Below are positions 13,611 to 64,000 of a stretch of 64,000 bases of DNA, in pieces. A program made the translations under genes and the position numbers. A model generated the notes under the pieces. That model was not told the DNA's origin. It searched no databases and worked only from the letters and a program-made list of their open reading frames with translations. Source of the stretch: Chrysomallon squamiferum (taxonomy: Eukaryota > Animalia > Mollusca). Location of the stretch: contig CM022670.1 in assembly GCA_012295275.1 (NCBI GenBank), positions 35,960,001 through 36,024,000 of the forward strand, read 5' to 3'. Within the stretch, counting starts at the first letter, position 1. Every line of letters begins with the position of its first letter.

Positions 13611-13778
13611 AAAAAAACAAAGTATTGATGACTGTTTGTACTATTACAAAAACGTTGACTGTTCTTGTTTGTAAACTGTATAAACATTTAACTAATAATG
13701 TAAATATTTGTTAATACTAAACCAAAATATCACCTCCCTCAAAAAAAAAAAATTTTTTTTTTTTTAAAAATCAGTGAA

Positions 13779-13834
<56 letters not shown>

Positions 13835-13856
13835 CAATAATAATAATAATAATAAA

Positions 13857-28332: not shown

Positions 28333-39724
<11,392 letters not shown>

Positions 39725-41125
39725 GATTATATTTCTGAAAATAACAATTTAAAAAAAAAGATAATAATTCAGTTAAAACAAACACTTTCTATAATAATAC
39801 TACTACTGTGGTTTAATTATTACTGTCTCAGTATCTGTAACATTATTATTGTTGTTTTCGTTGTTGTTGTTGTTGTTGTTTCGTCAGTGTAATTTCCAGT
39901 TCCAACCTGTGATTAACAGCGTTTATATTAAAAGCCGTGGTTTATATGTTCCAGTGTACGGTGCAGTTTGTATAAAAGAAAAATTCCTGTTGATCGGTAA
40001 AGTTTGATATGTAATGACAGTTAATAATAAAATGTCATTAGTCATGTATTTTATTTTATTTTATAATTTTATTATTACAATTATTATTATTGTTGTTGTT
40101 GTTGTTGTTGTTGTTATCGTTGTTGTTGTTGTTATTATTATTATTATTGTTGTTGTTCTTGCTGTTGTTATTGTTATTGTTGTTATCGTTGTTGTTGTTG
40201 TTGTTATCGTTATCGTTGTTGTTACACTAGTGTGCATTAGGCCTTTAAGAGTTAATTACATGAATTACCGCAATAAAGACTTTAAAATTTTATGAATAAT
40301 TTTATAAACAATTTACCCTTAAAGTCAGAAAGAAACTGCACACAATCTCACACAGCGCACATTTAAACACTGTTTTCTTTTGATAGCATTTAGGCTAATT
40401 TTCAGCAATTTATATTCCGTAGTTACGTACGATTAGTGAAAAGTCAGTAATATTTCGGTAACACTATAATCCGTTGAACTCTTGATAAGCTTACTTAGCT
40501 TCTAAATTCACGTGTAAGAATTACTTTTAACTAAACGTTAGCTGTGGTTAGAATTAATCTACACATACACGTAAATAAACAAAGAAAGAAAAGAAAAACG
40601 AACGATATTAATGTTGTATTAAAGTGAATGTTTCACCATTTTGAATTTCCTGTTTTCAGTTTAGCTAAATAAATTACCCATCTGTATTAATAACAATGTA
40701 ACGTGAAAGTGTAAAAATATTTAACATATTTATTCTACATTTTTCGAAATGGTGTTTACATTTAAAATTTTGAAATCATCTTTTGATACTGGTAGACCAC
40801 ACCAGTAAAAACATCGCAGACACAACCATACGGAAACTGAAAATTTATATTAAAATATAATTTTTACATAAAACCTGATTAACCAAACGATTCACAACTT
40901 TGCTAATTTATATATAGATGATGAATACATACTGGTAAGAATTAGTGAAGGATTGGCAAAAATGGTTGAATCATTTATCACATCTTATGTATTTTTACAT
41001 TATTATTTTGGGGTACCGTTTTCATTTTACGCTCATATTATATTTTATTATCAGCAAAGTGTTGTTTCTTAAATACAACTATCAGCTGAATGGATGTTCT
41101 AATGTATATTTTTTTAATATATATA

Positions 41126-42722: not shown

Positions 42723-45700
42723 TTAGTTAACAGCTTTAGAGTTTTGAACTATTTTTCTCGCAATTGCCATATTGACCGCAGCCTGGATTCCCATTTGAGG
42801 TTTTCTCTCTTGTCCTTCCACAAGATTTTTCACCTGAAAATAATTTTAAAATAAAATTTATTTTGGTATGCAGTTAAAGAGATATATATATTTTTTTTTC
42901 CTTCCATTTGCCATTGTTATACCTGCATTTTCAATCACCAGCTGGACTATGTGAATAATATGAATAATGTTTAATTCAATGAATAACATGAGTATTGTGT
43001 AGCTTGATAAATAGCTCTGTATAACAAGAATATTGTTTAATAAGATGAATAATATGAATATTGTTTAATAAGATGAATAATATGAATATTGTTTAACTAG
43101 ATGAATAATATGAATATTGTTTAACTAGATGAATAATATGAATAATGTTTAATTCAATGAATAATATGAATATTGTGTAGCTTGATAAATAGCATGAACT
43201 CTTCTAAGCTCTGTATAACATGAATATTGTTTAACAATATGGATATGAATATTGCTTAACTACATGAATAACATGAATATTGTTTAACTAGATGAATAAC
43301 ATGAATATTGTTTAACTAGATGAATAACATCAAAATTGTTTAACTAGATGAATAATATGAATATTGTTTAGATGAATAACAAGAATATAGTTTAACTGGA
43401 TGAATAAAAATGAATATTACTCAACTCACTGAACAACATAAATACTGATTAACTTAATAAATAACATTATCGTAAACCAGAGGAGTAAAATGAATATTGA
43501 CTAACTTAATGAATAGTATGAAAATGACTCAGTGAATAATGAATACTGTTGATCTTGATGGATAACATAAATTTTGCTCAACTCAAGGATCAAAATGAAT
43601 ATGACTCAGTGAATAACATGAATATTGTTTAACTTGATGAATAACAAATATTGCTTATGACCTCTATAAACAACATGAATTTTGCTTAACTTAATCAGTC
43701 AGATTTTTTATTACTGCTATATTCATTTTTACATCTTAACACTCATTTCTTAAACATATTTTTCTTACAGAGATTTTTTCTGGTTTATTTTATTCTTTAT
43801 TTTATCATTCATTTATTTGTCATCCTTTATTATAAGGAAAGTCTGGTCATACTGTACAATTAATTAATTTCTTATTTTAAAAATGAAATATATTTAACAA
43901 ACAAATCAAAGAAAAGTTAATTTAAAAGAAATTAATACCTTTAAATAAATTAAAATAAAATAAAATAAAATTTAAAAAAATAAAATATAAAATAAAATAA
44001 ATTAAAACTTGTTTTTTGGTTGTTGTTTTTTTAAATTGGAAAAAAATATAAAATTTAAAAAAAATAAGACCCTGACCTCATTTGACTGAGCTATGACAAT
44101 TCCATTCTTGAGAAGATTTTCTGACATTTGTTCCATCCCTTCGTGAGTGACACCACGACTAGCATCTTCAATGAAAACTGTTCGGAAACCATGCTCCACT
44201 GAATGCAGAGCAGTAAAACCTTAATAAAATAATACAAATAAAAAAGACATCATTTACAAACAATTCAGAGTACACAATGAACACTAACACAAGCAGCATC
44301 ATTATTATCTAAAATGGACTCAAAGAAGAGGGTAATTTCCAGACAGTTGTTCAGAAACCATGCTCTACTGAACACAGAGCTGCAGATATCCATATATTAT
44401 AAAAACAAACAAATCAGAACGCACAATAAACAAGATCAACAGTAACATTAATATCTAAATTTAACTTAAAGGAGGTAATTTTGAAACTGTTACAGACATT
44501 TGTAAAAAAAATACAAAAGTGACAATGTGATTTCATTGCAGTGTGATTATAGAATGCTAGGCACACTAACTCAAAATGAATAAACATTAATTTTTTAAAT
44601 AAAACGTTTACTGACTTACCAACACATACATCATAAGCCAAGCCACAAACATACACATCAGTGACATGATGCTTTGAAAGCAGTTTCACTAACTCTGTTT
44701 TTTGTAATTTGCAGTTGTCCCAGAATGCTGAGTAACTGTCAACTTCAGGGTTAGTGCCTTTATTTACTATGTGAGCTCTGTCTGTGATCTTAAAAATACA
44801 AAATAATCAGGAGAAATGTACTAACAATAATTTTAATATAAATTTCACAAACATAATTTCAGATTTCCATGTATTAAATGAAATTTATTTGAATGATTAT
44901 CATTCTTATTTATTAACTGAATTTTCTACCTGTCAGATGACATTTACAGGCATTAACTGAAATTATGCTACATCTCTAAAGATTTTTAATATAAACTTAC
45001 AACAAAGTACCAGCAACGACATTGAGTTTCGTTCTATTTGTATGACGGAATCAAGTCTGATCAAGCATTTTGTGTCCTGTGTTAAAAGAAAGGCCACTCT
45101 GATCTATTTTTAATAACCCTTTCCTTGCTATAAGCAGATATATCCACACAAAATGTTATTACTGTTGGCTATGGAAAGCAGATTTACCCAACAGCCTTAA
45201 AAAACTGTTCATTAAGCTGTAATAAATGAACACACCCACTGTCAGCTCAATATGTGCTGCCATCTGTGAGGCATTAGAGCAAATACTGGTCTTGTTGATT
45301 TTGCTGAGAGCTACTTTTAATTACTATAATCATTTTAACTTAAATCAAACATAAACCCATTAATGATGATAATAAAGAAAATAATAATAATAATAATTAT
45401 AATTATTGTTGTTGGTGTTGTTGGTGTTGTTGGTGTTGGTGTTGGTGTTGTTGTTGTTGTTGTTGTTGCTGTTGCTGTTGCTGTTGTTGTTGTTGTTGTT
45501 TGTGGTGGTGGTGGTGTTGTTGTTGTTGTTGTTGTTGTTGTTTGTTGTTGGTGGTGGTGTTATTGTTGTTGCTGTTGTTGTCACCATCATCATGATCATC
45601 ATAAAAGAATGATAGTTTTTAAGTGGTTTGCTGCTATGTAATTGTATAATCAAACATATAGCTTGAATATAAATAATGCCTAAACTGATGAAATCTGATC

Positions 45701-48700
45701 TTAATACTTTCGTTCTTAATGTGTAAGAACAGTGTGCCGAGGTACACGTATGTTTAAATTATTACTTCAAGATCAGGGTGTAGTTCTGCTCCTGCAGAAT
45801 TCTGAACACAGTGAGTTGGCCACAATCTCTGTTCGGTAAGAGGAGGTCCTTTAAACACCACAGTATCTCCAATGTTAAAACCATTACTGGATACCTGAAA
45901 AGCAAAAAAGATATATACCGTATATACTTGTGTTATTATGGTATGTTCGTGCAAGTTACAGCTCGTGCAAGTTATGTTATAGTAGGTGTATAATGTAGGC
46001 CTTCGTGGCACTGTCACACTGGTCTAAAGATAGTGACAGTGCCTGGAATCTACAGTCGACTTATACACAAGTAATACCTTAAATGACGCAATTTTTGGTC
46101 TTAAAATACACATTGACTTATACATAAGGTCGCCTTGTACACAAGTATATATGGTATATATAAAAAGAAGATAATAGAAAAAAGTTCTCTTTTTGTCAGT
46201 GAGTAAAATATATTTCTATTTAAGTATATTATGTGCATGATAAAATGCAATCAAATAATGCCATATGTGATAAATTTAAACTATCATTCGGGGTTTGTTT
46301 ACTTTCTGTTTGATTGAACAGAAGATTGTACAAAGTTGTTGAAAAGAAATCAGAGATAATATTTGATAATGCAGAAATTCATGGTTTTGAATTAAATTAA
46401 TTTTAGTATAAATAATTTAATTTTACTGGAATATACATACATGTATATTATCATCAGTATCAAAAAGTTCTTAATATTAAAATATATCTTTATGCTAGAC
46501 AATCCAGTATATATAAAAATAAAATTTGTATTTAATATTACTCACAATACAACATTAACAATCTAAAAGAGTTGTAGAGATAATTTATAATTAGTTATAT
46601 ATTAACTGCATTAATCTTAAAATTTAAATGGCTTTTTCATTTGTTCTAACTATAACAAAGTAGTTGCTTGGGTGTTCTTTTTTCAACACATGATTATTAA
46701 CAACTGACAAAAAGTAATAAATATTCAGAAATAATGTTAATCTAATTCAAGCATAACATTTAAGTAAATGTGAGGTGAAATATTTTGAGGAATTAACATA
46801 TGTAAATAATAAATCTCAAAATAGTCCATTAAATATTAATACCAAACATTAAATTTACTTTCTATTTCCAATAACTACAGATAAAATGAACGAGAAGCAT
46901 GTTGGTCTACCATGTTGCTTAATTATTAACTGAATTTTGTGCTAAGGTAAACATATAGTTTAATTTTTTTTTTTCATCAGTTTAAAATTAACTTCCACAA
47001 ACCTTTGACGTTTGGTCTAGTAGTCTTAAATTTACATTTTCTATAAATGAAATATGGTTACTTCCACAAACCTTTGACGTTTGGTCTAGTGGTCTTAAAT
47101 TTACATTTTCTATAAATGAAATATGGTTCTGAGGATGCCAGTCCTTTGAATAAACCACCACATCAAATGGAATTTCTTCCAGCATTTTGTTAATGACTGG
47201 AACCACGTCATAACCATCATGCCCTGCTGGGTAATCTTTAAGAGCAAGACTTCCACTAATGAAGTCGTTTTGAACGTCCACTATCAGCAGAGCTGTGATG
47301 GGATTCAGAACCTGAGGAACAGATAAATGTGCTCAAAACTGAAATCATAAATCAAACTAAATCTATACCAAATCAACAACAATACACAAAATACATTTCT
47401 GAATAAAAACACAAGTTAAATGTATGCATGAAAAGAGAAAGGCAGAAGAAGGAAGAATGAAAAGCAACAGTACCTGATCTACTGACATGGTTAAAAATTC
47501 TCTGGACTGAATTATGTGGAAATATAAAAATTAAATACTAATTTTGATGACAGCCAGACAATCAATAAAAAGATCAGAACAAGATATATTAAGAAAATCT
47601 ACATTAAATTTGTATTTTACTTGTAAATTTATAGACCATTTCATTACAGTCATTGTGTTATTTATTGTACAGTATCTACTACAGTTTAAAAAAAAAAATA
47701 AACATTATTCAATAACAAATGGTCTTTTTCACATGACAATCAGCTAGGACAATTATTATAAAAAAGATTATCCATAAAAAATAAAATAAATTATCACCAT
47801 ATGATCCACTACTAGGAGGCAACCATTTTACAATAGGGCCTTTTTTCCTGTTATAATACAAGTCAGTTTAAAACTAAGAATACAAAGATAAAGTAAAACC
47901 ATACATATTTCAGCCAGTACTTCCATGACTTGCTGAATTCTGAACTGCTCAGTTTGCTATCCTGAAAAAGAGTTTTAAAAAATTAATAAATAAACAATAA
48001 AAAAAAAACAATTCATATTGTACTAAAATAAAATAACTTATTATGAAAAATCAGGCTATTAATGTTTAATTTTTGATGACAAAAACTTAGAAACTTTGAC
48101 TGAGTTATGGAGGGAAAATATCTTTATTTGCTTGTATATAAAGAATCAGTTATGGAAAGTGAAAAGCAGATAACTTAGAAACAAAAGACTGGCATAAAAC
48201 GGTTATTTTTTAATTTTAACATTAATTATGTGTGGTTATGGGTGTATTTATTTATTGGTATTAATAGGTACTGAATATGGTCTGTCCTAAGAAATTATTA
48301 TTTGTCTTTCAGTATTGTTCTCAACAAGGTTAAAATTATCTGCCTGTTTACACTGGTCTAGCTTTGTAATGAGAGCAACCTTTGATAAGAAAATAAAAGG
48401 AAAAAATAATTTCAAGAGTATTTGTATGGGGCAGGCAGTTTTACAGTTAAAATGTAAATTACTAAATGAGAATGCTGTTCTTTAAAAATGTATTACAAAT
48501 TCCATGCTAGTACCATTTAATTGAGTTTCAGGTACAGAATTTGATAGAAGATACAATTCCATGTCTCTATAAGTTACAAAATATTAAACTGTGTGACAGA
48601 ATAAGTTGCTCTGACCATTCTATTAAAAGTATAATCGATAAAATATGTTTTGCCAAATAAAAAAATGTTATAAAATCAAATACTGGATAATCAGCTATTC

Positions 48701-49850
48701 AGTGTTATTTGGCGGTAAAGGCCAATTTCATTAAGTTAAAATTTAATAATAAATAATAATACATCTCTTTTAGCATCAGTTACCAAATTATATGCTTTTA
48801 AGTACAAAATGGTGTTATTTATCAAATTAATAAAATAAATAAAATTGTAACACATTTTTCTTTTTTTTAAATATTAAAAAATATAATAATAATAAAAAAA
48901 TGGTTTTAAAATGAACCTGGTCTTCATCAAGCTGTTTCAAAATAGCTTCTGTTGTTTCATAGCAAATGTTGTTTGTGTTACCAAATACATCTTGAAGGAA
49001 CACATGGAATTCTTGTATATCAAGGAAACCATCTCTAAAAGGTAAAAGAAAGACTTTTTAACAATTTTAAAGATTGAGGAATGCTACAGTTTTTATTCTT
49101 CTCCTATTTTTTTTTTTTTTTTTATAATTTATTAAAAGGTTATACAAATTTTGGCAGACATTATTGTAAATTATTCAATTTATATCAGTAAATTTACTTG
49201 TTTGTTTTGTTAGTGAAAACTTTTCAAAAATTAAAAAAAATGTATATATAGTGATAAATGCTACTTCTGGTATGTTTTGAAGGAGTTTGGAGATGTTAGG
49301 AGGGTTAAGGTTTTTTGTTGGTTTAATAAATATTACTTCATTTCAAATGATAGGAAAACATGTCTAAATAATTTCATTTTATCATCAGTATCAAATACTG
49401 TTACCTCAATACAAAGCAATAACAATAATATAGCGACTGGCAGTAATAACATAATAGTATTTTTTTTACACGTGTGTGTGTGTGTGTGTGTGTGTCCGCG
49501 GGCGCGTTAAGAAATGGAAGAATACAAGTTTCTTCATGTTTAGATTTTTAGTTACGCTTAATTTTGTACTCCAATACAGCGATTTTTTTTTTCGCTTTAT
49601 AACTTATTACGCATATTGTGGCAGTGCCTGTACATATTAAAATTATTATGTGTCTTCACTATTATGCGGTTTGTGTACTGTATTAACTATTATCTGTACA
49701 CGATAACACTATTACTTATTAGTATTATTAATACTATTAACAGTCGAATTAATTGAACCACCTGTTTTTATCGTAATGAAGAAAACAATTATCTATAACA
49801 TTTCTATCAAAACTAAACTTTCTTTTTATAAATTTATCTATATAATTCAT
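42723..49850 (-). CDS. Naam: Nicotinamidase (pyrazinamidase/nicotinamidase, isochorismatase family) with N-terminal EF-hand pair (~351 aa, 8 exons)
   Basis: Exons 49850-49762, 49034-48917, 47961-47905, 47311-47072, 45894-45766, 44788-44620, 44219-44077, 42833-42723 (TAA); total 1056 nt. Motifs ALLIVDVQNDFISGSL, DWHPQNHISF, LWPTHCVQNSAGAELHPDL, KGTNPEVDSYSAFWDN, VYVCGLAYDVCVGFTA (Asp/Lys/Cys triad and metal ligands intact). EF loops DKNRDGFLDIQE and DEDQDSKLSSSE. Confidence 0.95.
42950..43690. repeat. Minisatellite, ~28 bp unit (ATGAATAATATGAATATTGTTTAACTAG)
   Basis: About 20 or more degenerate tandem copies in the last nicotinamidase intron. Confidence 0.9.
45918..46154. mobile_element. Tc1/mariner (Tc2/pogo-like) MITE
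   Basis: TIRs CCGTATATACTTGTGT and reverse complement CCATATATACTTGTGT, TA flanks, internal GACTTATAC repeats. Sits about 24 nt from a nicotinamidase exon start. Confidence 0.7.
46991..47128. repeat. 69-bp tandem duplication across a nicotinamidase exon/intron junction
   Basis: 46991-47059 and 47060-47128 differ at one base. Confidence 0.95.
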
Positions 49851-49855
49851 AACGA

Positions 49856-50283
49856 TTATTTCTTTTTTATATTTAAATGCACTTGATTTACGATTAAAAT
49901 ATGTTAATCTTTTGTTGGCAACAAAATTATTTTCATCACGTGATCTCTGTCCCTACACAAGTCTCGATTTTCAGACCCTGCTGTTGTTTCTATTTGTATT
50001 AGAGGGTTTTGCAGTGAGAACTGCGAAGCGAAAGTAGAAATCTTTACGTTCCATTTAATTCTTCAAATTTTTACAGTAAAAATATATATATGATTATTAA
50101 TTATTATCATGTAGTACATCAACATTTTGTTTCTAGTAAGAATAAATGCATGGTGTTAAAGGAGTTATGACTGTGTGACTTTGAAAGCAGGAATTCTGAA
50201 TATTTAACTAATATATATCTTTTTCTATTTAAACCCATCTTATAAGTATACTTTTTTTGGTTGATACTTTATTATTTCCAAAA
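49856..50283. repeat. Left copy of a long direct repeat; overlaps the nicotinamidase 5' region and the shared promoter
   Basis: Colinear with 62058-62525 (e.g. TTTTCATCACGTGATCTCTGTC, GAACTGCGAAGCGAAAGTAGAAATCTTTACGTTCCATTTAATTCTTCAAAT). Contains the E-box TCACGTGA. Confidence 0.9.
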
Positions 50284-51824
50284 TTTCTTTACATATGTCT
50301 ACTTTGTAATCAGAATAAAACTACACAGGGAATCATCTCCCGGAGCCCATCACTGGCGATGTAAGAGACTGTATCCGAAACTATTTCTTAATGTGGGCAC
50401 GTACAAAGAGTTCGCATACCCATACACACAGAGAGGAAATTACAACAGAAGTTAAACATTTCTAAGAACTTTCACAATGTGAAAATAGAAAAAATTTCCT
50501 TGAAATAAAAGTAATAGTTTGAAAAATATTTTCGATTTGTATTGATATTTCCAAAAATATTTCAGACTAAGGTTTATAATATTTTAAAGATATGTTAAAC
50601 AAACATATGGTTTATTGTTGACATATGATAAATGATATTATGTTTATTATAAATTTGGTTCTTTAGTATAGTTACAAGAAGCAGTGTGCACAATAGTTTA
50701 ATTTACATATAATGTCAAGATTAAATATCTATAATTATATACATATATTATTCCTTTTAATTCTTTCGCAAAATTAAAAATATATGGCATTAATTAACAT
50801 TTCTGTTAAAAATTATATGTAGGCTGGTATGTGCACTTGTACATTGAGTAATGGCAATCTCTACACAAGAATAAATAAATAGAAGTTATCAAGAATTATA
50901 TATAAAATAATCAGTTAATAATCATAATACTAATATTGATTTGATATACGAGCAAACTGAGTTACTAGTTCGGTCACGGAAAGAATTAAACTCGTAAGTC
51001 GTCACCACTGCACACACGCACACGCACACACACACACACACACATATTAAATTTCTTTTTCTGCTAATTCAAAGAAAGTAGCTCTGTAAGTATGATGACA
51101 ACAGCTTTCTCATTTTATCCAGCCTTCTATTTTTACAGTCATTACAGACCATTACAGATTATTACTGAACATTTTTATTTTTAAATTTTTAAATTTTAGA
51201 TATTCCATGACAGATCGTAGGTTTGAATTGTTCTCTTTTGCAGGGCTGCCAAAAGTTATCTAGATAGACAGGTCTTTGTATTTCTTTACATTATTCCTTT
51301 GTTACATTCATTATTGTTTCCCACATCATTATTGCTTTTTAGTTTAATTTCATTTAAAATATATCAGCTTTACTATTGTTTGTTTTCTTTATATAAAACC
51401 ATAAGCTTCGTAGAATGTTATAGTTTTGTATCTATTATAATACAAAATAATTTTTTTGGTTTCATACTAGATTTAATAACATTCTTTTTAACTTCCACAT
51501 GTGAGTGATATCTAGACAGGGATGAAAATCACAGTTTCTCTCCATATTTAATTTATTTGTGTAATTATTTCTTTATATAATTCTGTGTATGATATGATGT
51601 CATGAACAATAATAAACTATCGGCTTGCATTTTCAAGAGCTTCTAATTTTGTTGATAAACTTTATTATGTGCAAAGATTCATCTGAGTAAAAAATTAAAA
51701 ATACAAAAAACAAAAATCAGTCATTTGGAAGAATACAAACTATATGAAGTTTATATATATATGTATATATATAATACCTCTGATTTTAAAAAATAGTTTC
51801 TTGTATTTCCATTGTAGAATTAAT

Positions 51825-52969
51825 ATGGCTGTGTCCAAACAAAGATGTGTGATTCTGAGTGAAGAGCTTGAACAGGAGCTTACTTGCACTGTGTGTTTTG
51901 AATTCTTTGAAAACCCTGTACTTCTACCTTGTAGTCACAGCTTCTGCAAAAAGTGTATTGATGTAAGATTTTAGCTTTTTTTAAGTATGTGTGTCTGTCT
52001 GTCAGTGTATGTGTATACATGTACATGGATGAAAATCACTGGGACCTCTAAAGATTCAGTGAAAAATTATTTCTTTTACTTTAATTTTATCTTTTTCATT
52101 TTGAAACCCAAACAGTCTATTAAATCTCAATGTGTCTGTGGTTGTACATGTGAGTGTAGCATCTACAACATGCACAGATACACAGCTTAGTTAACACGGC
52201 TTTTCTATGATTTATTTTTTGTATGTGAACATTAATGTATTGGTAGATAAGAGAATGAAATAAGAAAAAGAAGTTATTTAAAATGTTCAAGTTTAGTTCA
52301 AACCAAAAACAAGATGTAACTTTCAGCTGTTTATTTTATTATTCCTAGAGTGTTATAGAAAACTGTTCATCTCCTGTTCACTCATTTGACTGTCCATTGT
52401 GCAGAAAATTTATTAAAGTGAAAAGTCAGACAAAGGCTGATGACTTCCCCAAAAATCTTGCTCTGGGGAATCTTGTTAAGCTTCACACTGAAAAAGATGA
52501 CATGTTTCCAGATGAACTCTTCAAAGCTGACCTTCCGGATCTTGTTATTGACCGAAGTTGCCCAGAACATGGGAAACCCATGAGTATCTATTGCTATACA
52601 TGTGCTCATGCAGTGTGTGAAGAATGTTTGAAGGTGCAGCCTTGTTCAAAACACAAATCAAAAAAACTACAAGACTACTGCTCAATTCTGTTGGTGAGTT
52701 TTGATTAACCAGATTTAAAAAAATTAATGTATATATATAATATATATTGTTTTTGTGAGTTTATAAATAGTATTTCAGTATTTTTAGGTGTACTAGCAAC
52801 AAATGAGTTATTATATACTGAACCAGTAGTGTGATTTGTGAAACTTATTGAAGAATGTTTCAAACAGCTATTTATGTTCTTTAAGCAAACAGTACATACT
52901 ATTCCATTATTCATCAAAATAGCATTTAAAAAAAACAATAATAATAATAATAATAACAAAAAAAAAAAA

Positions 52970-53001
<32 letters not shown>

Positions 53002-53294
53002 AAAAAAGCACACACATTGCATCTGAGGAAAACATGAAAATAAATGTTAAGTCTTTACTTATAGCAGTGACAGAACCGAGTTACAACTGAATATCCAGAG
53101 TACTGTATCACATTATTATGATCTGGAGTCATATCTGCTTTAATCGAAATTCAGATTTGTACTGTTAAAATGACAATGATCACCGTGAAGATGTTAAGTG
53201 AAATTATTTATGTAATAAGGGTAATGTGTTAATGTGTTCTGAATGGGTAGGCTGGAAAAAGCATGCATCCAAACACAAATTCACACACACACAT

Positions 53295-53358
<64 letters not shown>

Positions 53359-54017
53359 TTAATATTATTATTATTATTGTTATTAATATTATTATATTAA
53401 TGATTTCAGAAACATATAATCACTGACATCCCTAAATTAAAAGATCTGTGTCATCGTCTGGAAGAAAATAATGGCATGCTGAATGTGTTTCTAAGTGATT
53501 TGGATGTAAGATGTTAATTTTTATTTTTTTTTTTTTTTACCGACTGAATAAATTGTTAATGTACAAGAGCACTGAAACAGTTATAATATTTTATTAATAG
53601 TAAAAATAGATCTCCCTCAATCACACTTTTATTTTAATACAGAGAACTAATTTCTTGTAACTTTTAACATTAAAATTATGTGTGTGTGTAAAATGGAAAT
53701 GTATAGAAAGATGGAAAGAAAGAAAAATAGATGGTAATTTTTCTTTTTCAGAAACATGAAGAACATCTGCAGGCTACTGTGAAATCTGAATTTGAAGCGC
53801 TTGTTACAGAGCTTAACAAGAAATGTGATCAAATGTCATCAGTAATCAAAATGAAATATGCAAGTCAAAGGCTTCATTGGAAAGAACAAAAAAAACGTTA
53901 CACACTCACTGTTTCAGAAATGAGAGATGTCACTGATGCTGTCAGAATGGCAATTAAAGAAGAAAAAGCAAGCTGTGTGTTAATGGTAGAAATCAATAAT
54001 ACTGCTTATGCAAGAAC

Positions 54018-54073
<56 letters not shown>

Positions 54074-54450
54074 ATGACTGCATATAATTAGTCTTAACAT
54101 AAATTAGATTGTGCTTTCTTTTTCATTGACAAATTATTTAAACTTTGTAATTTCACAATTTAAGAAAGCGCAAAAAGGTAGGAAAATGGATATTTTATAC
54201 AATAAATGTTTTAATTTTAAATGTTTTATAATTATTTTTATTATTTATTTTTTTATATTCATTGTTTTTTTTATTATTATTATCTGGGTTTTTTTGTTAA
54301 TCTTGCAGCTTCTAAAAAGTTGTCAAAAAAGAATGAAAGCCTTAAAGTCACCCCCCAAAAATAAAAATTATGAAAAAGTTCATGACATACCAAAATGGAA
54401 ATTACATCAGGAAGTCTATGCTGCTATCAAAGAAATCTCATTAAAAGAAG
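51825..54450 (+). CDS. TRIM RBCC module (C3HC4 RING, B-box2, coiled coil, COS-like linker)
   Basis: [28 protein letters not shown]...FDCPLCR; [11 protein letters not shown]; [23 protein letters not shown]...CSKH. The 96-nt and 234-nt phase-0 coiled-coil exons are the sizes typical of TRIM genes. No SPRY, NHL or FN3 domain follows. Confidence 0.93.
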
Positions 54451-57400
54451 GTCATTTTTATTATTATTTTGTTTTTTTTAGTTTTTATTTATTCTGTCTT
54501 CTCTTGAAATTTAATGCAGTTTTCAAATGCAATTTTTGAACTGTTGATGTTCTCTGATCTTATCTGAATAGTCCTTAACCAAATGCCTGCTACAGCATGG
54601 CCAGAACCTAAAATACATTCATTTCAGTTTATCATTAAATAAAGCCTTTCTTTCATTCATTCCTTTTTAAAATAATCAGCATGCATTACTTGAAAACTTC
54701 TTGTAATCTGAACTAAAGAGTGGAAGTAAAGCTGAAATAATTTTGTTGTATTTGTTCATTTTTGTTTTTGCTTGTATAATTAAAGAAAAATATTTATAAT
54801 CATAATATTATTTTTCAAACTGACTTCCTCCTCCCCGTTTCTTATTATTTAGTAAATAGTAGATTAATATATTTGAATTCCTGTGCATTCAGAAGACATG
54901 TATGATGAACCAGAGAAAAGAGCTCAGCAACTGCCAGATCTGTTTTTGGATCGAAAGCTCCTGGAGGTGGAAGTGAGTGTTTCAACACTGTATGAATACC
55001 TACTTTAGAAAAAACTTATCACAAACATTATTTATTTATTTATTTATTACATATATATTAAGTAATAATTTCTAAATCTCCTTTGTAAGATTAAAACAGT
55101 TATTAAAGTTACACGAGATGATGTTAACTAATAGTTGTATTTTTGTTTTGTTTTACAAGCAAATTTTTCTTTGTTTGTGAACATTTTAATTATTGCAATT
55201 ACTTGATGATTATTTTATGACTTTATAATCAGCTGTCCTTTCAATCTGTTTACATCAAAAACTCAGCTTATTTACATTTAATTAGGTTTTATTTAATTAT
55301 TTATTTATTTTATTTTATTGTTTATTTATTAAATCATTATTTAAACTGAAACTTTTGCACTTTTCATCAACGGGTACAGTGTACAGGTATAATTTAATTC
55401 CTTAATAAAGATAAATTTTACAGTATTCGTTATTGATGTTGTTTTAAATTAACTTCATGACTTTAATGTTTGACAGGTATCTGATTCTTTCCAGATAACC
55501 ATAATAATTTCATAAATATCATTTCTAAAACATTGTCTTTTAATTAGAGAAACATCAGACCTCTGAATCTAAATTTGGAATATTTAATGATCACACAGAA
55601 GTGATTTGCTTTTCTGATATTATTTAATGCAAGATTAAGCAAATATTTGCCAAACAGAAATATTTTTTAATTATTTCTCCTATGTACATGTGAATAAATC
55701 TGTTTTGTATAAAATGTTCTGCAATGACAAAGGTTGTTACACTTTTTCAGGTGCTTTTGGTACAAATAATATAAGTTGGTACTTATGTTAGAAGTATTTA
55801 AGTTTATTTTTCTATGTTTGCAGCAACATTTGGTTCTTCTACACCGTTTGGACAAAGTGAGTGAAACATCATAACCTCTTAATTAATGAGCTGAGGAATA
55901 CAAAATATATCAAGATGTAAAACAACTACTGCTGTCAAGTTTCTACCATCTTTCAGGACATAATGCACATAAATTGAGTACTAAAATATATATCTACATT
56001 CTTGATAATACCGAGGTCAGTTATAAACCACTAAAATAAATTGTTTTTGAGATTCACTACTGATTTACATTAAACAAAACACATTTATCTTTTTCTGTGT
56101 AAAGGCAGTAGTACATTTGGTGCAAAGCCAACTCCTGCATTTGGATCTTCGACTCCAGCCACAGGTGGATTGTTTGGCGCTTCCTCAACAGGTACAGGTG
56201 GATTGTTTGGTCAGACACAGACCACATCAACATTTGGCCAATCTTCCAACTTAAGTAAGGGAAATTGTTTATAGCGTACATTATGGATACTGATTATTAT
56301 ATGTATATGTATTATCTGCTCTTTGGTTGTTATATTTCATTACTTCATTAATCAAAAATTACATTTCTGACATTTGTCATGCATGGCTGTCTTTATAAAA
56401 AATAAAAAACAAAAAAGCCAAAAAATACTCCATAACTGGTAAGATTGGTCCAAAGAAAATATTATTTTCTTGTGGTCTGTAAATAAATGGAACTAAATTT
56501 ACTAATCCTGTTGTTTAACACTGTTTTGTTTCCAGCCCCTGTAATTTAGATGAATAAATTGTGATTATAACATGTAAATATCATTATAATGGTTTTGATT
56601 TTTGTTCTATATGGAATGAACAGTATTATTACTCACACAAATTCTTGTGAAATAAAAATTCATGGTTCAGTCAGTATTTTATTCTTATGTTTAAAGCGTT
56701 TTTGTGTTATTGTGAAAATACATATGGTTATTTTTTACATTTGCAGTATTTGAAAATAGTGTGTTAGAACTGTTGCTTTACTTTTATTGTATTTTCAGCA
56801 TTGAATTATTGTGATTGTATTGTTGATGAAATATTTCTTTATATTATCTTATTTCACTTGCAGCATTTGGAAGTACATGTAATAGAAGTATTACTTTGTT
56901 ATTTTATTAATATCATTATCAAATGGTTGTGATTATATTGCTGAGGAAGTATTTATATTATTTCACTTGTAGCATTTGGAAGTACACCAGCTAGTACTGC
57001 AGGAGGAAGTTTGTTTGGAACACAGACTCCTTCAGGAGGTTTGTTCTCAACTCCTGCCAGTTCTGCTTTTGGGTCAAAACCTGCTGGATTTGGAAGTGAG
57101 TGTTTCAACACAAAACATCTTTTTTTTTTTTTTTTTTTTTTATACAATGTGCCTACTTTTAAAAAATAACTTTACATAGATGTATTTTAAAAAAAAAAAA
57201 TTTTTTTTTTTTTTTTTTTTTTGATAAATTGTCTTGATTTATAAATATTCATAAAATATTTTTGGATACTTAACAAGTTGTTAATGCTACTCAAGAAGAA
57301 GTGAAATTTAGTATAAAATTAATAAATACATTTTATTTTTAATTCTTTTATGGTTGATATTTATTATATAAGATAAAATGTATTTTAATACAAAACTGAA

Positions 57401-60317
57401 AGTTATGATGTGTGGTTAAAAACGTAATAATTGCTTATTAACTTATTTCACCTTCATTTACTTTTTAGCAGGTTTTGGTATAGCAACATCCACAGCCTCT
57501 GGTGGACTTTTCAGTCAGACTCCAGCCCAGTCTACAGTATTTGGCCAGTCAAGACCAGGTATACCTGTAAAAAAATTCTTGTTTGTGAACATTTTAATTA
57601 TTCCAGTTACTTGATGATTATTTTAAGACATTTTAAATTAGATGTCCTTTAAATCTGTTTAGTTAAAAAACTCAGTCAGCTAGTAAGTTGTGTTCAATTT
57701 AGAATTTACTAGATTTAAATTCATAACACATAAACATGTTTCGTGTAATTTGGGTTTTATTTTTATTTTTTTATTTTTATTTATATCATTATTTTAACTG
57801 AATTTTTTGCATTGGTTCTCTGAATGACTTTTTATATATTTTGTTCCTAGTATTTGGAGCTGCTACAACACAGAATGGAACAACAGTCAAATTCAATCCC
57901 CCTCCTGGAGAAGACACAATGATGATAAATGGCAGCTCAACAAGCATACAAACAAGACATCAGTGTATTACTGCTATGAAAGAATATGAAAACAAAAGTT
58001 TAGAGGTAACTGTTTAATAGTAAATTTGTTCTTTAACCTCTTTTCAGATTTTTTACATTCTTATTTTAAGTAAATATGTAGTTACATAATGTAATTTTGT
58101 TATTAGGAACTTCGTGTGGAGGACTATTTATCCAACAGGAAAGGAAAACAAGATGGAACAGCAGGAGGTCTGTTTGGATCTACTTCAGCTTTCACTTTTG
58201 GTAGAGGTATAAAATGAATTACTTAATGAGTATTTACATGTAATTTGGGTTTTATTTATTTATTTATTTATTTTTAAAATCATTATTTAAACTGTATTTT
58301 TTGCATTGGTTCTATGGATGATTTTTTATGTATTTTGTTTCTAGTATTTGGAGATGCTACCACACAGAATATGTTAACTGTACATGTGAATAAATCTTGT
58401 TTTGTATAAAAATTTCTCAAATGATGAAGTCTGTTACACTTTTTCAGGTGCCCTTGGTACAAATACGTCTACTAGTACAGGTGGACCGTTTTGTCAGCCT
58501 GCCCAGACAGGGCAGACAGGTGGACTGTTTGGTTCAAGCAAGCCTCTGTTTGGCAACACCTCAACCAGTACAGGAACAGCCTTTGGATTTGGAGCCAGCA
58601 CAAGCCAGACAAGTTCTCTGTTTGGACAGACTCCTGCAGCAAAGGTAAAAATAACACATACTATTTATGATTTTATTTTTTTATTGAATTTTAAAATGAA
58701 GAAGCACTTCAAAGGTAAAATTAAAAGAAATTGTCATTGTTTATCATTTTAGTCTATTCACCTATATTGTTTTGTTGGTTGAAGTGTCATGCAGAATTTT
58801 AAACTTCTTTAATTACTTATTTTATTTTTTTCAATACTGTTTTTTTTTTTTTTGACAGTCTTTAATCAAACCCCATTGATAGATTAAAATAAATGTACAT
58901 ATTTACTAATGATATAATAAAATAAATTTACCTTTGTTCTTAGTAATTATTTTTTGATACAAAGTTGTTCAGTTGCCTTTAACCCAGGTAAATATTCATC
59001 TGTTTTCTGTTAAAGCCCTCACTGTTCGGTACCACACCAGCTGCTTCAACACAACCTTCTTTGTTTGGTACCAACACATCAACATTTGGCCAGTCAGGAG
59101 GATTTGGAACCACTGGGTTTGAAACCCAAAAAACTGTAAGTACACCTTTTAGCTAAATCAAATACTGTTTTGATATGATTTTTTTTTTACACTTAATGAT
59201 CACACAGAGATGAAAAAGATTTTCTGATATTATTATCATAAAGAAATTAAAGAAGAAGAAAAAATGTTCCAGTCTTTTCAGATGATTTTCTTATACTTTT
59301 ATTTAATTGTTTTTTCTTTTTCAGTCTGGTGATCTTTATGGAAGTAAACCTACTGGTTTTGACAAAGCCACGACAACAGCATCTACTGGATTTGGTTTTG
59401 GTACAGGCAGTAATTTGTTAGCTAAACTAGTGTCATCTACATCAACCTTAGGAATTGCAACTACTACTCCATCCTTTGGAGGTTAGTTAAAATAATTATT
59501 GTGATATCTTAGTGATGTAATAATCAAGATTATTAAATTATTAGAAATACCATAATCCAGACGTAATTGTCAAAAAATGTAATGCTGTTGCAGCTATGAG
59601 AAATAAATGATAATCATCTAACAAATAAATTTAAATAAAAAAAAGAATTAAGCAACTATTTGCCAAACAGAAATATTTGTACATGTGAATAAATCTGTTT
59701 TGTATGAATTTTTCTGCAGTGACATAAGTTGCTACACGTTTACAGGTGCTTTTGGTACAAATACTTCTACTAGTACAGGTGGACTGTTTGGTCAGCCTGC
59801 CCAGTCTGGGCAGACAGGTGGACTGTTTGGTTCAAGCAAGCCTCTGTTTGGCAACACCTCAACCAGTACAGGAACAGCCTTTGGATTTGGAGCCAGCACA
59901 AACCAGACAAGTTCTCTGTTTGGACAGACTCCTGCAGCAAAGGTAAAAATAACAAACTATATTACTGTTTCACATTTTATTTTTTTATTGAATTGTAAAA
60001 TGTAATATTTTTCTTAGTAATTATTTTTTTAATACACAATTGTGCAGTCGCCTTTAGCCGTGGTAAATATTCATCTGTTTTCTATTAAAGCCCTAACTGT
60101 TCAGTGCTATACCAGCTTCTTCAACACAACCTTCTAAATTAAATACTGTTTTGATATGACTTTTTTCGCATTTAATGATGCCACAGAAATGAAACAGCTT
60201 TTCTGATATTATTTAATGCAATATTAAGCGAATATGTTGTTAATAATTAAGAAATTAGAGAAGAAATAATAATAAAAATATCTGTATATTCTTCATCTTT
60301 TCAGATGATTTTCTTAT

Positions 60318-60362
<45 letters not shown>

Positions 60363-61690
60363 GTATTTGTTTATCCAAAATAGGTAGGTTTTTGCATGCT
60401 TGATATCTTGTGAATGAATCTTAAACTTTACTTGCACACACAGAAAAATGACAAAATCTAAATACATATTTCTCAAAATTTATATCAGAATTTAAGATTT
60501 AAACTAAATTAAAAACTTTTTATATTATGTATCAAACAGAGTTGTATATTAATTTCAATTCTATAATTCATTGATTTAAAATGATGTTGACCCCTTTTTG
60601 TATATAACATTTAAACAATACTGTTGATGTTTTCAAAAAATATTTACAAAATATCAATAATTTAATCATCTTTCAGGTTGTTTTCTTAAGAATATTCAAC
60701 TCGGTTGAAAGGCCTGAGAATAGAAACTGTAGTAGTTAACCTGACAATACTCTAATGCATTTAACCTTATCATAGGACATGTTATATTTCTTCTAATTTT
60801 TCAGAAAGTGCATATTAAAGTTTTATCATCCGTTTGGCCTTCAACCATATAAAGTAGATATGACACCATTTAACTAGCTTAAAGATGTGTTTTTACTAAG
60901 GAAAATGTTTTTTTATTTTTTTAACTACATTTTTAGTTTTGATAAAACTGTTACTTTGTCTCCTATCTTTATCAGCAAGACCTCAAATCCAAGACTGGAA
61001 TTAGAACTACTTCATCAACAAGTAAGGTATGTGATGAATGGTATTTTGTGTATGTAGAAATATTTTCAAAGGACTGAAACATCAGTACAAAATACACATT
61101 GACCCTTAATGTATGTATGAGCGATTTTTTCTGTGTGATATATATATATGGAAACTGACTGTTAGAGGGATCATCAGAAAATAAAATTATTTAAAGTAGA
61201 AAATAAAATGAATTAAAGCTGAAAATATTTGATCAGTTGCAAAATATCTGAGTTAATCCAGAATTGTTGTTTATTGAACTTATGATATAGTAATGGTGGA
61301 TGCTGTTTTAAATTGTAGGAAATATTTACATTTATTTTAATTTGCAATACAACTAAAAAAACCATTTTTATTAGATTCAAAGTTCAGTCTTAATATAAAT
61401 AACAAATAATTATACATTTTAATCAAATCTTGTTTTAGGTATGTCCAACCAGTATGTTACCATTTGCTTCAGCAGTGACTGCTACTACTACTACTACTAC
61501 TACTCCTGCTACTACTATTACTACTACTACTACTACTACTACTACAAACTTTGTAAAAATAGATCCGTTTGATTCCTCATCAGACACTTCAGTAAGTTCA
61601 GAGGAGAATGGTCAATCAGCAAACCCAGAAATATGTCCTACTTCAAACAGATCGAAATCAAATTCAGATACTGATGATGAAGAATGGTAG
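51825..61690 (+). CDS. Chimeric TRIM (RING-Bbox2-coiled coil) / Nup98-derived FG-GLEBS protein (~859 aa in the model that skips exon 54893-54972)
   Basis: Exons 51825-51962, 52349-52693, 53410-53505, 53752-53985, 54309-54450 (phase 1), then 55824-55856, 56105-56254, 56973-57095, 57469-57558, 57851-58005, 58107-58206, 58448-58644, 59016-59135, 59325-59481, 59746-59942, 60976-61026, 61439-61690 (TAG). Total 2580 nt, all GT-AG, no internal stops. Probable non-coding 5' exons end at about 50993 (C|gtaagt) and span about 51244-51271. Joining the two halves in one mRNA is inferred. Confidence 0.72.
55824..59942 (+). CDS. NUP98: Nup98-derived FG/GLFG repeat exons with GLEBS motif (partial Nup98 copy)
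   Basis: About 35 FG dipeptides (6 GLFG) in S/T/G/A/Q spacers. GLEBS at 57851-58005 plus 58107-58206: [55 protein letters not shown], closely matching the Nup98 GLEBS consensus. No native Nup98 start exon, autoproteolytic domain or Nup96 seen. Confidence 0.92.
60091..60140 (+). pseudogene. Decayed duplicate of FG exon 59016-59135
   Basis: Same acceptor context (taaag|CCC), but TCA>TAA at codon 2 and the 3' half including the donor is deleted. Confidence 0.8.
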
Positions 61691-61847
61691 AAATGGTCAT
61701 TGAAGTCACATCAGTTTTCCAGTTTTCAGACTCAAAGACTTCAAAATCAAGAGATAATCCTGAGATAACTGCTGTATCATTAGAGAAACTAAAGTCCTGA
61801 TGTGACAACAACTAATACAAGTTTGGTTGTCAGAGCTTGAAAATCAG

Positions 61848-61888
<41 letters not shown>

Positions 61889-62057
61889 TACACATACACA
61901 CACACACAGATATTTAGTTTGTATGATGTACTTATAATAATAGAAAAAAAGAACTAGAACAATCTTTTTAAAAAAAAATTCCTCAAAAAGTGATTGCAAT
62001 TACTTTAATTCAGTTTACGTTTTTGGCAACAACATGATGTATATATGCTATATGCGG

Positions 62058-62525
62058 GTTATTTCTTTTTTATATTTAAATGTACTTGATTTTACGACGA
62101 AAGCTATCTTAATCTTTTGTTGACAAAAATTATTTTCATCACGTGATCTCTGTCTCTACACAAGTCTTGATTTTCAGACCCTGCTGTTGTTTCTATTTGT
62201 GTTAGAGGATATTGTAGTTTGAACTGCGAAGCGAAAGTAGAAATCTTTACGTTCCATTTAATTCTTCAAATGTTTTACAGTACAAGTATATATATATATA
62301 TATATATATATATGTGATTATTAATTATTATCATGTAGTACATCAACATTTTGTTTCTACTAAGAATAAATGCATGGTATTAAAGGAGTTATGACTGAGT
62401 GACTTTGAAAGCAGAAATTTTGAAGTAAATTTAACTAATATTTATCTTTTTCTATTTAAACCGTCTTATAAATATACTTTTTTTTTTTTTTTTTTTTTGT
62501 GTTGTTGAAACTTTGTTATTTCCAA
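62058..62525. repeat. Right copy of the long direct repeat of 49856-50283
   Basis: Colinear alignment by eye with scattered substitutions and expanded (TA)n and T tracts. Confidence 0.9.
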
Positions 62526-62799
62526 GTTTTATGTGTTTTATCTTGAGAGAGTCTCTTTCAGATATTATTGTTTTGTGCTGAAGGATTTCCCTCAACTATC
62601 TTTACAAGAACGTTAATCTTTCATTGACTCTGTCACAGGGAGTTATGCCCCCTGAAAAAAGACGTCCATTCCTTTGGCTAATTTGACTCTCCTTTTAACA
62701 TGGTTATAAGCCTTTCATACATTAGTCACATAAATATATTTTTATGTTTTCGTTATATTTTCTTCAAGTAATTCAGTGTGGATATGTGTATTTGATTCT

Positions 62800-63453
62800 A
62801 GGGAAAAAAAGTATCAGGAAAAAGTCAGAGAACAAAATAACAGAAGACAAAAGGCACAGCGAAAAAGTTACAATTTTTAATTAAGGTAACAAATGGAAGA
62901 TAGATTAAACAGATTTTGTCAGAGGTTTTTGTTAATGTTCTTTGTTTTTAATTTGAGTGCATTAGGCAGATGTTCCACTCAATACCACGATGAAATCTGA
63001 CAATTACAACTAGATCTTTTGCATGTTTGTTATACATGAACCCCTCATAAAATATTTTGTTACCACCCTTACTGCTATGAATAACTTCCTTATTAAACAT
63101 ACTTCTGATACTAGAGGAAACTGGAGAATATACAGTGAAACACATTTTAACCTGGGACATTTTATAAATCTTTTACAATAGGAAGCCCTTAGTTTAAATC
63201 TATCCTAATCAGTAAGCAAGAGCTAATCCTGCCAAACTGATCCTAATTAATAAGTGTAGCAAGTCGCCATCCCTGCACAATATGAAGCCCCTTTCTTCAG
63301 TCTAGCCTAATCAATAAGTTTAACAATTACCCCATGCATACTATGATGCTACATTCAATACTCTACAAACCCATAGATAATGACTTTTTTCCTGTGATTT
63401 ATTTTCCTATACTAAATTGTGACTTTTTTCTGTGACTTTTTTCCCAGCCACCG
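62800..63453 (-). mobile_element. Non-autonomous Mutator-like (MULE) remnant with FLYWCH fragment
   Basis: Minus-strand VIHSSKGGNKIFYEGFMYNKH resembles a FLYWCH N-terminus. Inverted GGAAAAAAGTCACA-type subterminal repeats at about 62800-62875 and 63381-63453. Confidence 0.65.
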
Positions 63454-64000
63454 TTTATTCCTGAAATATGTTTGTAGGTCAAAGAAGTTCTAATCAACTG
63501 CTATACCGTGTAATTTGCATACTGCTGTAAATATTTTACGTAGTTGATATATGGTGGATATACAAAGAGACGAAGCAAGGGCGGGGTGAGGGAGCAGTTA
63601 TTCTCGGGTGCAGGTATAAAGAAGTGCAATATTTTTTTATTTTTTTTTTTTTTTTTTTAAATGCCTGTTAAAATTATGTTCACTTTTCTATCATACGTAA
63701 CATCCTTGTTTCTGGGCGCGATGATAATGGACTTTAATTTTGGCCAGGTAGAAATGGTAATTGATTGTTATTTCAGAGAATAAACTTACAAAATATATAT
63801 AATAAAACATTCCACGGATAAGTCAAGTGGGTACGCCAAAATTGTATTCGCCCAAGGACGCCAAGAACCCAATCTATACCTTGAATATATTATATATAAT
63901 ATAGTGTGGAAGCAAAAAACAAACAACAAAAAAACGACCTGAACTTTATCAGCTCATTTCACAAAAAAGCATTTTAAAGTTTCTAAAAATGTACATAAAG

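Follow-up and report, generated by a model that had tools for sequence, protein, structure and literature searches.

A predicted gene joining a TRIM ligase scaffold to the FG/GLEBS N-terminus of Nup98 in Chrysomallon squamiferum

Does a TRIM ligase scaffold that is followed at a short distance by Nup98-like exons form one gene with them, or do the two only lie side by side? This question is raised by a stretch of 64,000 nucleotides from the snail Chrysomallon squamiferum (GenBank assembly GCA_012295275.1, contig CM022670.1, positions 35,960,001 to 36,024,000), which is referred to as the window and numbered from its first letter. An earlier note on this DNA had proposed a natural fusion of an RBCC region (RING, B-box, coiled-coil) to phenylalanine-glycine (FG) repeats and the GLEBS motif of the nucleoporin Nup98. 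From the analyses described here it appears probable, at roughly 70%, that the locus is one gene, in which a complete TRIM scaffold is joined to a DNA-level copy of the FG/GLEBS N-terminus of Nup98, and that its product is a Rae1-recruiting ligase. The parts, their order and strand, the splice phases and the open frame were observed directly. For C. squamiferum, the gene is known here from the DNA sequence and from comparison with a relative, Gigantopelta aegis.

Two halves of one predicted gene

The predicted chain consists of 17 GT-AG exons on the plus strand (51825-61690; Table 1). Together they comprise 2577 nt, corresponding to 858 codons and one terminal stop; the frame had been put at about 859 amino acids before, but the chain sums to 858. 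The surrounding DNA is AT-rich, with a guanine plus cytosine (GC) content of 0.24-0.35 per 2 kb of the window, and the introns are short. For the genome of G. aegis, a GC content of 37.2% is given (PMC7895826). Splice phases agree at both joints at which non-homologous parts meet. The TRIM part ends at 54450 in phase 1, which is also the phase in which each of the first four FG exons begins and ends; the last FG exon ends at 59942 in phase 0, and both tail exons, the first of which starts at 60976, begin in phase 0. We infer that the fifth exon is spliced from 54450 to 55824 (or 56105) and that the chain continues to the stop at 61690. The distance between 54450 and 55824 is 1373 nt, in agreement with the 1.4 kb within which the Nup98-type exons had been said to follow. 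A second TRIM copy or further FG exons were not detected elsewhere in the 64-kb window.

The five TRIM exons show AG acceptors and GT donors throughout, are read in phase 0 and add up to 955 nt, that is 318 codons plus one nucleotide, which gives the final phase 1. The start codon is located in a good context (A at -3, G at +4). In Pfam searches with single exons, RING models matched exon 1 with E values ranging from 1.2e-9 (zf-RING_UBOX) to 3.8e-8, and a B-box was recognised on exon 2 at residues 69-95 (zf-B_box PF00643, 30.2 bits, cut-off 24.1). Among PDB entries, exon 2 matched TRIM2/TRIM3 weakly. An AlphaFold2 model of exon 4, calculated from the single sequence, contains helices at residues 2-49 and 54-76 with a mean predicted local distance difference test score (pLDDT) of 88. 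These predicted helices are consistent with a coiled coil behind the B-box, the model covering the helices themselves and not their dimeric packing. Pfam matches, helical model and length sum thus agree with the earlier description of a complete RING/B-box/coiled coil whose last exon ends in phase 1.

The ten exons from 55824 to 59942 specify 440 residues without a stop, with 35 FG. When joined, their translation follows the canonical Nup98-96 of G. aegis (P0004) colinearly from residue 16 to about residue 396; 299 of 370 residues are identical (81%), and in exons 55824-58005 identity rises to 88%. Since canonical Nup98 sequence is restored across nearly all exon junctions, the splice sites can be regarded as validated. 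The GLEBS exon is recognised by Pfam (Nup98_GLEBS PF21240, 64.8 bits, cut-off 27, E 7.5e-18), matches the Nup98 chains of the Rae1 complexes 3mmy, 4owr and 7vpg (E ~1e-17) and is 86% identical to P0004. When single FG exons were compared with Pfam, four of the seven scanned gave matches, the highest of which (27.2 bits) is below the cut-off of 32.2; exon 56105-56254 scored 19.2 bits with Nucleoporin_FG, also under the cut-off. The count of 35 FG and the GLEBS score uphold the proposed set of phase-1 Nup98-type exons with about 35 FG and GLEBS.

Exon 57472 has an alternative acceptor 3 nt upstream, at 57469. At 56728-56986, the acceptor region of exon 56973 recurs in tandem, in degenerate copies with 72% identity. 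These copies make pseudo-acceptors, followed by 'CATTTGGAAGTACA', which are possible decoy splice sites.

On the downstream side, tblastn revealed no similarity in 59943-64000 to Nup98 beyond residue ~396, to its autoproteolytic (peptidase S59) domain or to Nup96, and the autoproteolytic domain and Nup96 remained without a tblastn match in the whole window, just as had been noticed before. On the upstream side, no tblastn similarity to the canonical first coding exon of Nup98 was obtained in 47400-55823. The Nup98 part has retained its introns, being distributed over ten GT-AG exons; therefore, the earlier view that it arose by duplication at the DNA level and not by retroposition can be maintained. 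The GC content of both predicted tail exons, 60976-61026 and 61439-61690, is 0.37, compared to 0.23 and 0.18, respectively, upstream of them.

The counterpart in Gigantopelta aegis

A full HMMER scan with TRIM exon 2 as query, performed against 1.84 billion representatives, yielded 20 proteins at E <= 0.001. While 19 of them were weak matches (E >= 6.7e-7), one protein of 1030 amino acids (P0196) stood out with 54% identity and an E value of 1.3e-31, the aligned residues 49-162 being in the same place as in the gene model of the window. A word-index protein search with this exon had given no match, a false negative, since HMMER found an orthologue with 54% identity. P0196 is the G. aegis protein XP_041359532/533/535/536, listed in RefSeq as 'nuclear pore complex protein DDB_G0274915-like isoform X2'. 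Isoforms X1 (XP_041359531, 1043 aa) and X3 (XP_041359538, 1027 aa) belong to the same cluster (P0196, P0216, P0217). The RefSeq name reflects only the low-complexity tail and conceals the TRIM nature of the protein.

Comparison of the RBCC region with P0196 revealed 136 identical residues out of 318 (43%) and one single-residue gap, located near the N-terminus. Exon 1 shows 63% identity to residues 1-46. Exons 3 and 4 have counterparts of precisely their own length in P0196, 32 and 78 residues; the former pairs without gaps, and the latter corresponds to residues 195-272 (tblastn, E 1e-7). The end of exon 5 (..ISLKE) aligns with ..ITLKKE of P0196, and it is at this point that P0196 runs on into Nup98-derived sequence. 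Pfam recognises a RING in P0196 (E 3.4e-9) and, at 404-422, Nup98_GLEBS (28.3 bits, cut-off 27), but the S59 and Nup96 (PF12110) domains were not found. Since the autoproteolytic domain is missing from both the window and the G. aegis orthologue, the gene is to be regarded as a derivative of the Nup98 N-terminus and not as a Nup98 orthologue.

The Nup98-derived region of P0196 is degenerate. Of GLEBS, only the C-terminal, Rae1-binding arm is kept; this remnant (KEYENKSFEELRHEDY..RKGK) gave a Smith-Waterman score of 87 versus 22 +/- 4, and none of 300 shuffles reached it. Residues 320-396 exhibit a weak colinear likeness to the first FG exons of the window, with 22 of 300 shuffles reaching the score, and for residues 430-760 compared to the later FG exons the corresponding number is 21 of 300. 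The tail exons scored 78 against residues 760-1030 (55.4 +/- 7.6; 2 of 300 shuffles). A pseudo-exon at 54893, read in its non-FG frame, was also considered as a counterpart of the pre-GLEBS part of P0196 (316-480) and rejected, the score being reached by 82 of 200 shuffles. Overall, XP_041359531-538 contain a RING, a B-box, a helical region, a Nup98-derived part with a GLEBS remnant and an acidic tail rich in Ser and Thr, in the same order as in the window. They differ in being about 170 residues longer, in a tandem Thr-rich repeat and in the degenerate state of the Nup98 part.

Among the best 120 of the 402 proteins matched by the GLEBS exon (E <= 0.001), none carried a RING or B-box according to Pfam; the G. 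aegis fusion ranks outside these 120, which could therefore not have revealed it.

The neighbourhood provides a second line of comparison. Head-to-head with the TRIM gene, a complete nicotinamidase gene was identified, whose start (49850, minus strand) is separated from the TRIM start by 1975 nt, possibly a shared bidirectional promoter region. In a tblastn search with a nicotinamidase-like protein of G. aegis (P0121), the alignment included residues 1-353 of 354, and 280 of 377 columns were identical (74%). The orthologues of this neighbour have isochorismatase and EF-hand domains. P0121 is XP_041359539, the accession directly after those of the fusion, XP_041359531-538. Consecutive RefSeq accession numbers presumably denote neighbouring genes in G. 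aegis. The fusion, XP_041359539 and a separate full-length Nup98-96 (XP_041359202/203) are all located on one contig of 102,884,749 nt; the full-length Nup98-96 foreseen in addition to the fusion is hence present, an outcome which refers to the relative only.

The alignment and the shared nicotinamidase neighbour indicate that the two loci are orthologous and that the fusion predates the split of the two snails. From these comparisons it is very likely that the fusion is real and older than this split. The proposal of one gene fusing an RBCC region to an FG/GLEBS fragment of Nup98 is thereby supported by a RefSeq protein that is syntenic and has its parts in the same order.

Direct repeats of about 430 nt (49856-50258 and 62059-62484) bracket the entire TRIM-Nup98 gene, the left copy touching the start codon of the nicotinamidase gene. 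They are 87% identical by blastn, with 91% column identity, and may represent either a dispersed element or what is left of a segmental event. Two further open frames, 13704-14513 (+, 269 codons) and 39029-39748 (-, 239 codons), resemble exons of other genes.

Table 1. Exons of the predicted TRIM-Nup98 gene and the adjacent nicotinamidase gene (window positions; P0004, canonical Nup98-96 of G. aegis)
Feature	Position	Strand	Phase	Remarks
TRIM exon 1	51825-51962	+		Start codon, first half of C3HC4 RING
TRIM exon 2	52349-52693	+		Final RING Cys pair and B-box
TRIM exon 3	53410-53505	+	0 to 0	Start of helical (coiled-coil) region; 32 codons; GT-AG
TRIM exon 4	53752-53985	+		Coiled-coil; 78 codons
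TRIM exon 5	54309-54450	+	ends in 1	Coiled-coil end and linker; weak donor AAG/GTCATT
Nup98-type micro-exon	55824-55856	+	1 to 1	Canonical residues ~16-27; 9/10 match G. aegis Nup98
FG exon	56105-56254	+	1 to 1	43/48 identical to P0004
FG exon	56973-57095	+	1 to 1	36/41 identical to P0004
FG exon	57472-57558	+	1 to 1	25/29 identical to P0004
GLEBS exon	57851-58005	+	1 to 0	45/52 identical to P0004
GLEBS end (ELRVEDY..RKGK) and FG stretch	58107-58206	+	0 to 1	24/33 identical to P0004
FG exon	58448-58644	+	1 to 0	Older-looking copy of duplicated exon; FG-breaking changes (ALG, PFC)
FG exon	59016-59135	+	0 to 0	33/40 identical to P0004
FG exon	59325-59481	+	0 to 1	33/52 identical to P0004
FG exon	59746-59942	+	1 to 0	Well-kept duplicate of 58448-58644; 84% identical to P0004 241-306
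Predicted tail exon	60976-61026	+	0 to 0	GT-AG; not Nup98-like; weak prediction
Predicted last exon	61439-61690	+		Thr-rich, acidic Ser-rich tail and stop; 83-codon open frame
Nicotinamidase gene	42729-49850	-		8 exons, complete; head-to-head with TRIM gene; synteny anchor

Constraint, decay and competing explanations

The Nup98 array is not uniform in its state of preservation. A block at 58360-58698 is duplicated at 59663-60002 (blastn, 88% over 346 columns). The two 197-nt exon copies within it, 58448 and 59746, differ at eight of 197 nt; in the introns that flank them, 69 of 94 and 44 of 62 columns are matches. The exon copies are far better kept than the introns, which argues that at least one of them is held by selection or conversion. 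All five amino acid differences sit in this exon pair, the FG-breaking states being found in the first copy (58448). Changes were assigned to branches with Haliotis as outgroup. By this measure, exons 55824-58005 carry six copy-specific changes compared to eight on the branch of the canonical G. aegis gene, and no acceleration is apparent; for exon 58448, ten copy-specific changes are opposed to none on the G. aegis branch. Judged from these counts, the first FG block and GLEBS are preserved as well as in an essential nucleoporin. In the second copy of the duplicated block, a (TA)n microsatellite has taken the place of exon 59325, exon 59016 is represented in truncated form (60091-60135, within 60025-60320), and 59746-59942 is the sole intact exon.

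Debris of the array is also found in the long intron. At 54893-55790 on the plus strand, degenerate copies can be assigned to the end of exon 56973-57095 and the adjoining donor, to two introns and to the beginning of exon 58448/59746 (direct repeats D3, D6, D8 and D10; blastn identities of 79-88%). Position 54893 had been named among the FG exons to which the TRIM part might be joined. The homologous donor of this piece yields phase 0 and its FG frame contains stops, so that 54893 has to be dropped as a joinable exon.

Several observations weigh against a single gene with a functional FG array, and they have to be judged together with the explanations they favour. At the joint itself, the donor at 54450 is the weakest of 16 and the only one with C at +3; reading through it, the TRIM frame would continue for 29 mostly hydrophobic codons to a stop at 54537-54539, with ATTAAA at 54634, and the 1.37-kb intron assumed instead contains the pseudo-exon debris. 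At 55814, 10 nt before the 55824 acceptor, there is an ATG in frame, which gives an M-F start as in canonical Nup98 and could begin a separate FG protein. The G. aegis entries XP_041359531-538, moreover, are computed RefSeq models. Hence, the locus might consist of two units, an RBCC-only TRIM with a hydrophobic tail resembling that of the transmembrane-anchored TRIM13/TRIM59 class, and a truncated Nup98 paralogue which starts at 55814 or is silent. Such an arrangement is improbable, for the G. aegis protein passes from the same RBCC end directly into Nup98-derived sequence. Furthermore, the read-through stretch has an intron-like GC content of 0.19, while all exons have at least 0.30, the ATG is placed in a poor context (T at -3 and +4) within a typical polypyrimidine acceptor tract, and in-frame access to the tail exon resembling that of G. 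aegis requires the shift from phase 1 to phase 0 provided by the FG array. The statement that the FG exons have no start of their own agrees with the missing canonical first exon in 47400-55823 and has to be qualified for the ATG at 55814. Far less probable still is an assembly artefact, a collapsed or chimeric join by which a Nup98 fragment was put behind a TRIM gene. The region is indeed rich in repeats and in AT and contains internal duplications, but the same gene order and the fusion are present in the independent assembly of G. aegis. The FG exons could also be the 5' part of the sole canonical Nup98-96 gene, with the remainder beyond the window, as might be suspected from the unaccelerated exons 55824-58005 and from the end of the window 4 kb past the last FG exon. 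This reading, just as hard to credit as an artefact, was rejected on the basis of the negative tblastn results on either flank and of the separate Nup98-96 gene in G. aegis, where the TRIM fusion presumably adjoins the nicotinamidase gene and the canonical gene is a different one. The duplications and lost FG motifs of the array do not fit a sole canonical gene either.

Other observations concern the FG repeats themselves. The orthologue of G. aegis contains seven FG in about 710 residues compared to 35 in about 540 here, and Gly accounts for 5% of its Nup98-derived part versus 15% in the window gene; FG repeats are not a conserved requirement. Between the duplicated exons, the proportions of nonsynonymous and synonymous differences are about equal (pN 0.042, pS 0.039; tiny counts). 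Exons 58448 and 59325 together show 21 copy-specific changes versus six on the canonical branch, and of the 37 Phe residues that two canonical Nup98s have in common, five have been lost, all of them in these two exons and four in exon 59325, from which several FG motifs are gone (LYG, FD, LL, LGIA). These losses and changes suggest that part of the array is decaying or skipped. The near-canonical state of the FG part could result from gene conversion and not from selection. It may be asked whether the fusion is real but its Nup98 part no more than a disordered Ser/Thr-rich tail as in G. aegis, the canonical appearance being due to recent conversion or re-copying of a canonical Nup98 on the same chromosome. 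The partial GLEBS of the orthologue, the richness of the locus in internal duplications and debris, and the gradient of identity to the G. aegis counterparts, 81% for the FG/GLEBS part (compared to canonical Nup98), 74% for nicotinamidase and 43% for RBCC, would fit such a reset clock. We nevertheless consider this explanation rather unlikely, though the strongest competitor to a Rae1-recruiting fusion. The duplicated exon pair is much better kept than its introns, all ten exons hold frame and splice sites over 440 codons, and the C-terminal arm of GLEBS survives in the otherwise diverged G. aegis protein, which argues for selection on the motif.

Possible function and relation to known fusions

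The asymmetry in divergence can be explained in either of two ways, by strong selection in C. squamiferum while the G. aegis gene drifted, or by refreshment through conversion or re-copying from the canonical gene. In both cases the FG domain of C. squamiferum would be a species-specific addition, maintained or refreshed. The following mechanism is proposed for the fusion. Dimerisation would be brought about by the coiled coil and E3 ligase activity, as inferred from its family, by the RING, with the Nup98 module as the recruiting end. Through GLEBS, the protein would bind the mRNA-export factor Rae1/Gle2 in the manner of the solved complexes, and through its cohesive GLFG repeats it would associate with transport receptors and enter FG phases. 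In this way, the ligase would be brought to complexes of the Rae1-Nup98 type or to their binders, host or viral, for ubiquitination. Recruitment of Rae1 is taken as the core function, because the Rae1-binding arm of GLEBS is all that both orthologues keep in common. The conserved partner is therefore more likely to be Rae1 than a capsid; a decoy pore trapping capsids, as had been suggested, depends on the FG repeats, which are mostly lost in G. aegis.

A more specific role can be proposed only tentatively and by analogy. The gene may be a lineage-specific, germ-line immune TRIM of vent-snail relatives, in which the near-canonical Nup98 GLFG/GLEBS bait, together with Rae1, would imitate the Rae1-Nup98 site as well as the pore's FG phase and by which whatever docks, be it nucleus-bound capsids, retroelement particles or viral proteins attacking Rae1-Nup98, of the VSV-M/ORF6 kind, would be ubiquitinated. 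The Rae1-Nup98 complex is described as a target of viral proteins such as M of vesicular stomatitis virus (VSV) and ORF6 of SARS-CoV-2 (cited in PMC13189347). If this immune role applies, the gene would stand beside TRIMCyp, and beside the engineered Trim-NUP153C, as their natural counterpart.

Comparison with these and other systems shows both shared and distinct features. In TRIMCyp (TRIM5-cyclophilin A of owl monkey and macaques), too, a captured host protein takes the place of the usual C-terminal recognition domain. The origin of TRIMCyp was the retrotransposition of a cDNA without introns, whereas the captured part of the snail gene keeps at least nine introns, which points to an origin by DNA duplication. 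In addition, this part is disordered FG/GLEBS sequence and not a folded domain as in TRIMCyp, and the snail gene is known from its sequence alone. The host protein captured in the TRIM scaffold of TRIMCyp is bound by viruses (PMC4936896). In Trim-NUP153C, the RBCC of rhesus Trim5alpha was joined to the FG domain of NUP153 (Matreyek et al. 2013, PMC3795039), and thus an RBCC region to a nucleoporin FG domain as in the snails; in the experiment, HIV-1 was restricted by this fusion, whose FG motifs recognised the capsid of lentiviruses (PMC3795039), a precedent which the earlier note had cited correctly. Trim-NUP153C is man-made, however, with FxFG motifs of NUP153 and no GLEBS, while the snail gene is natural and combines GLFG-type repeats of Nup98 with a Rae1-binding motif.

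The NUP98 oncofusions of human leukaemia (e.g. NUP98-HOXA9) are described as condensate-forming proteins in which the same piece of Nup98, its N-terminal FG repeats and GLEBS with the autoproteolytic domain left out, is attached to a foreign module for oligomerisation or binding. They originate by somatic translocation, and in them Nup98 forms the N-terminal part and the partner binds chromatin or DNA; in contrast, the snail fusion is germ-line and conserved, has Nup98 at the C-terminus and an E3 ligase as partner. TRIM34 is a TRIM of the SPRY-type architecture. In humans it is described to associate with RAE1 and transport factors (PMC13189347), and so it, too, ties a TRIM to the Rae1/nuclear transport machinery. 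Its binding is non-covalent, while in the snail TRIM the Rae1-binding motif is built in.

A natural TRIM-Nup98 or TRIM-GLEBS gene was not found in the literature searched in full text, nor a study of the G. aegis fusion protein in the literature searches. The earlier remark that no such gene had been described holds for this literature, but the protein of the relative is present in RefSeq under an automatic name. Two proteins of the land snail Bradybaena similaris, BFZ20336.1 and BFZ20335.1 (P0002 and P0195; 893 and 923 aa), contain the full GLEBS motif twice (136 bits in all) together with a helical stretch, and have a C1q domain at the C-terminus. Judged from these genome predictions, they represent another, independent reuse of the Nup98 GLEBS in gastropods, here with an immune-type domain. 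A 'Nup98-Nup96-like' protein of Clarias gariepinus (P0001, 245 aa) with two GLEBS motifs and an FG stretch is probably a truncated paralogue or a partial model.

The specificity of TRIM ligases comes from exchangeable C-terminal domains. To our knowledge, TRIMCyp is the only well-known natural case in which a captured host cofactor serves as bait of a TRIM. On the comparisons presented here, the gene is well supported, and its new element is the captured C-terminal module. With the snail locus, a second and independent kind would be added, in which a TRIM acquired the FG/GLEBS end of a nucleoporin through DNA duplication and which is present in at least two snail genera. Three questions could be examined on this natural case. 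Is an FG domain able to act as a recognition module away from the pore? Does a dedicated ligase guard Rae1-Nup98, which viral proteins often target? And what course does the evolution of a captured, disordered domain take, when it is near-canonical in C. squamiferum but almost erased in G. aegis?

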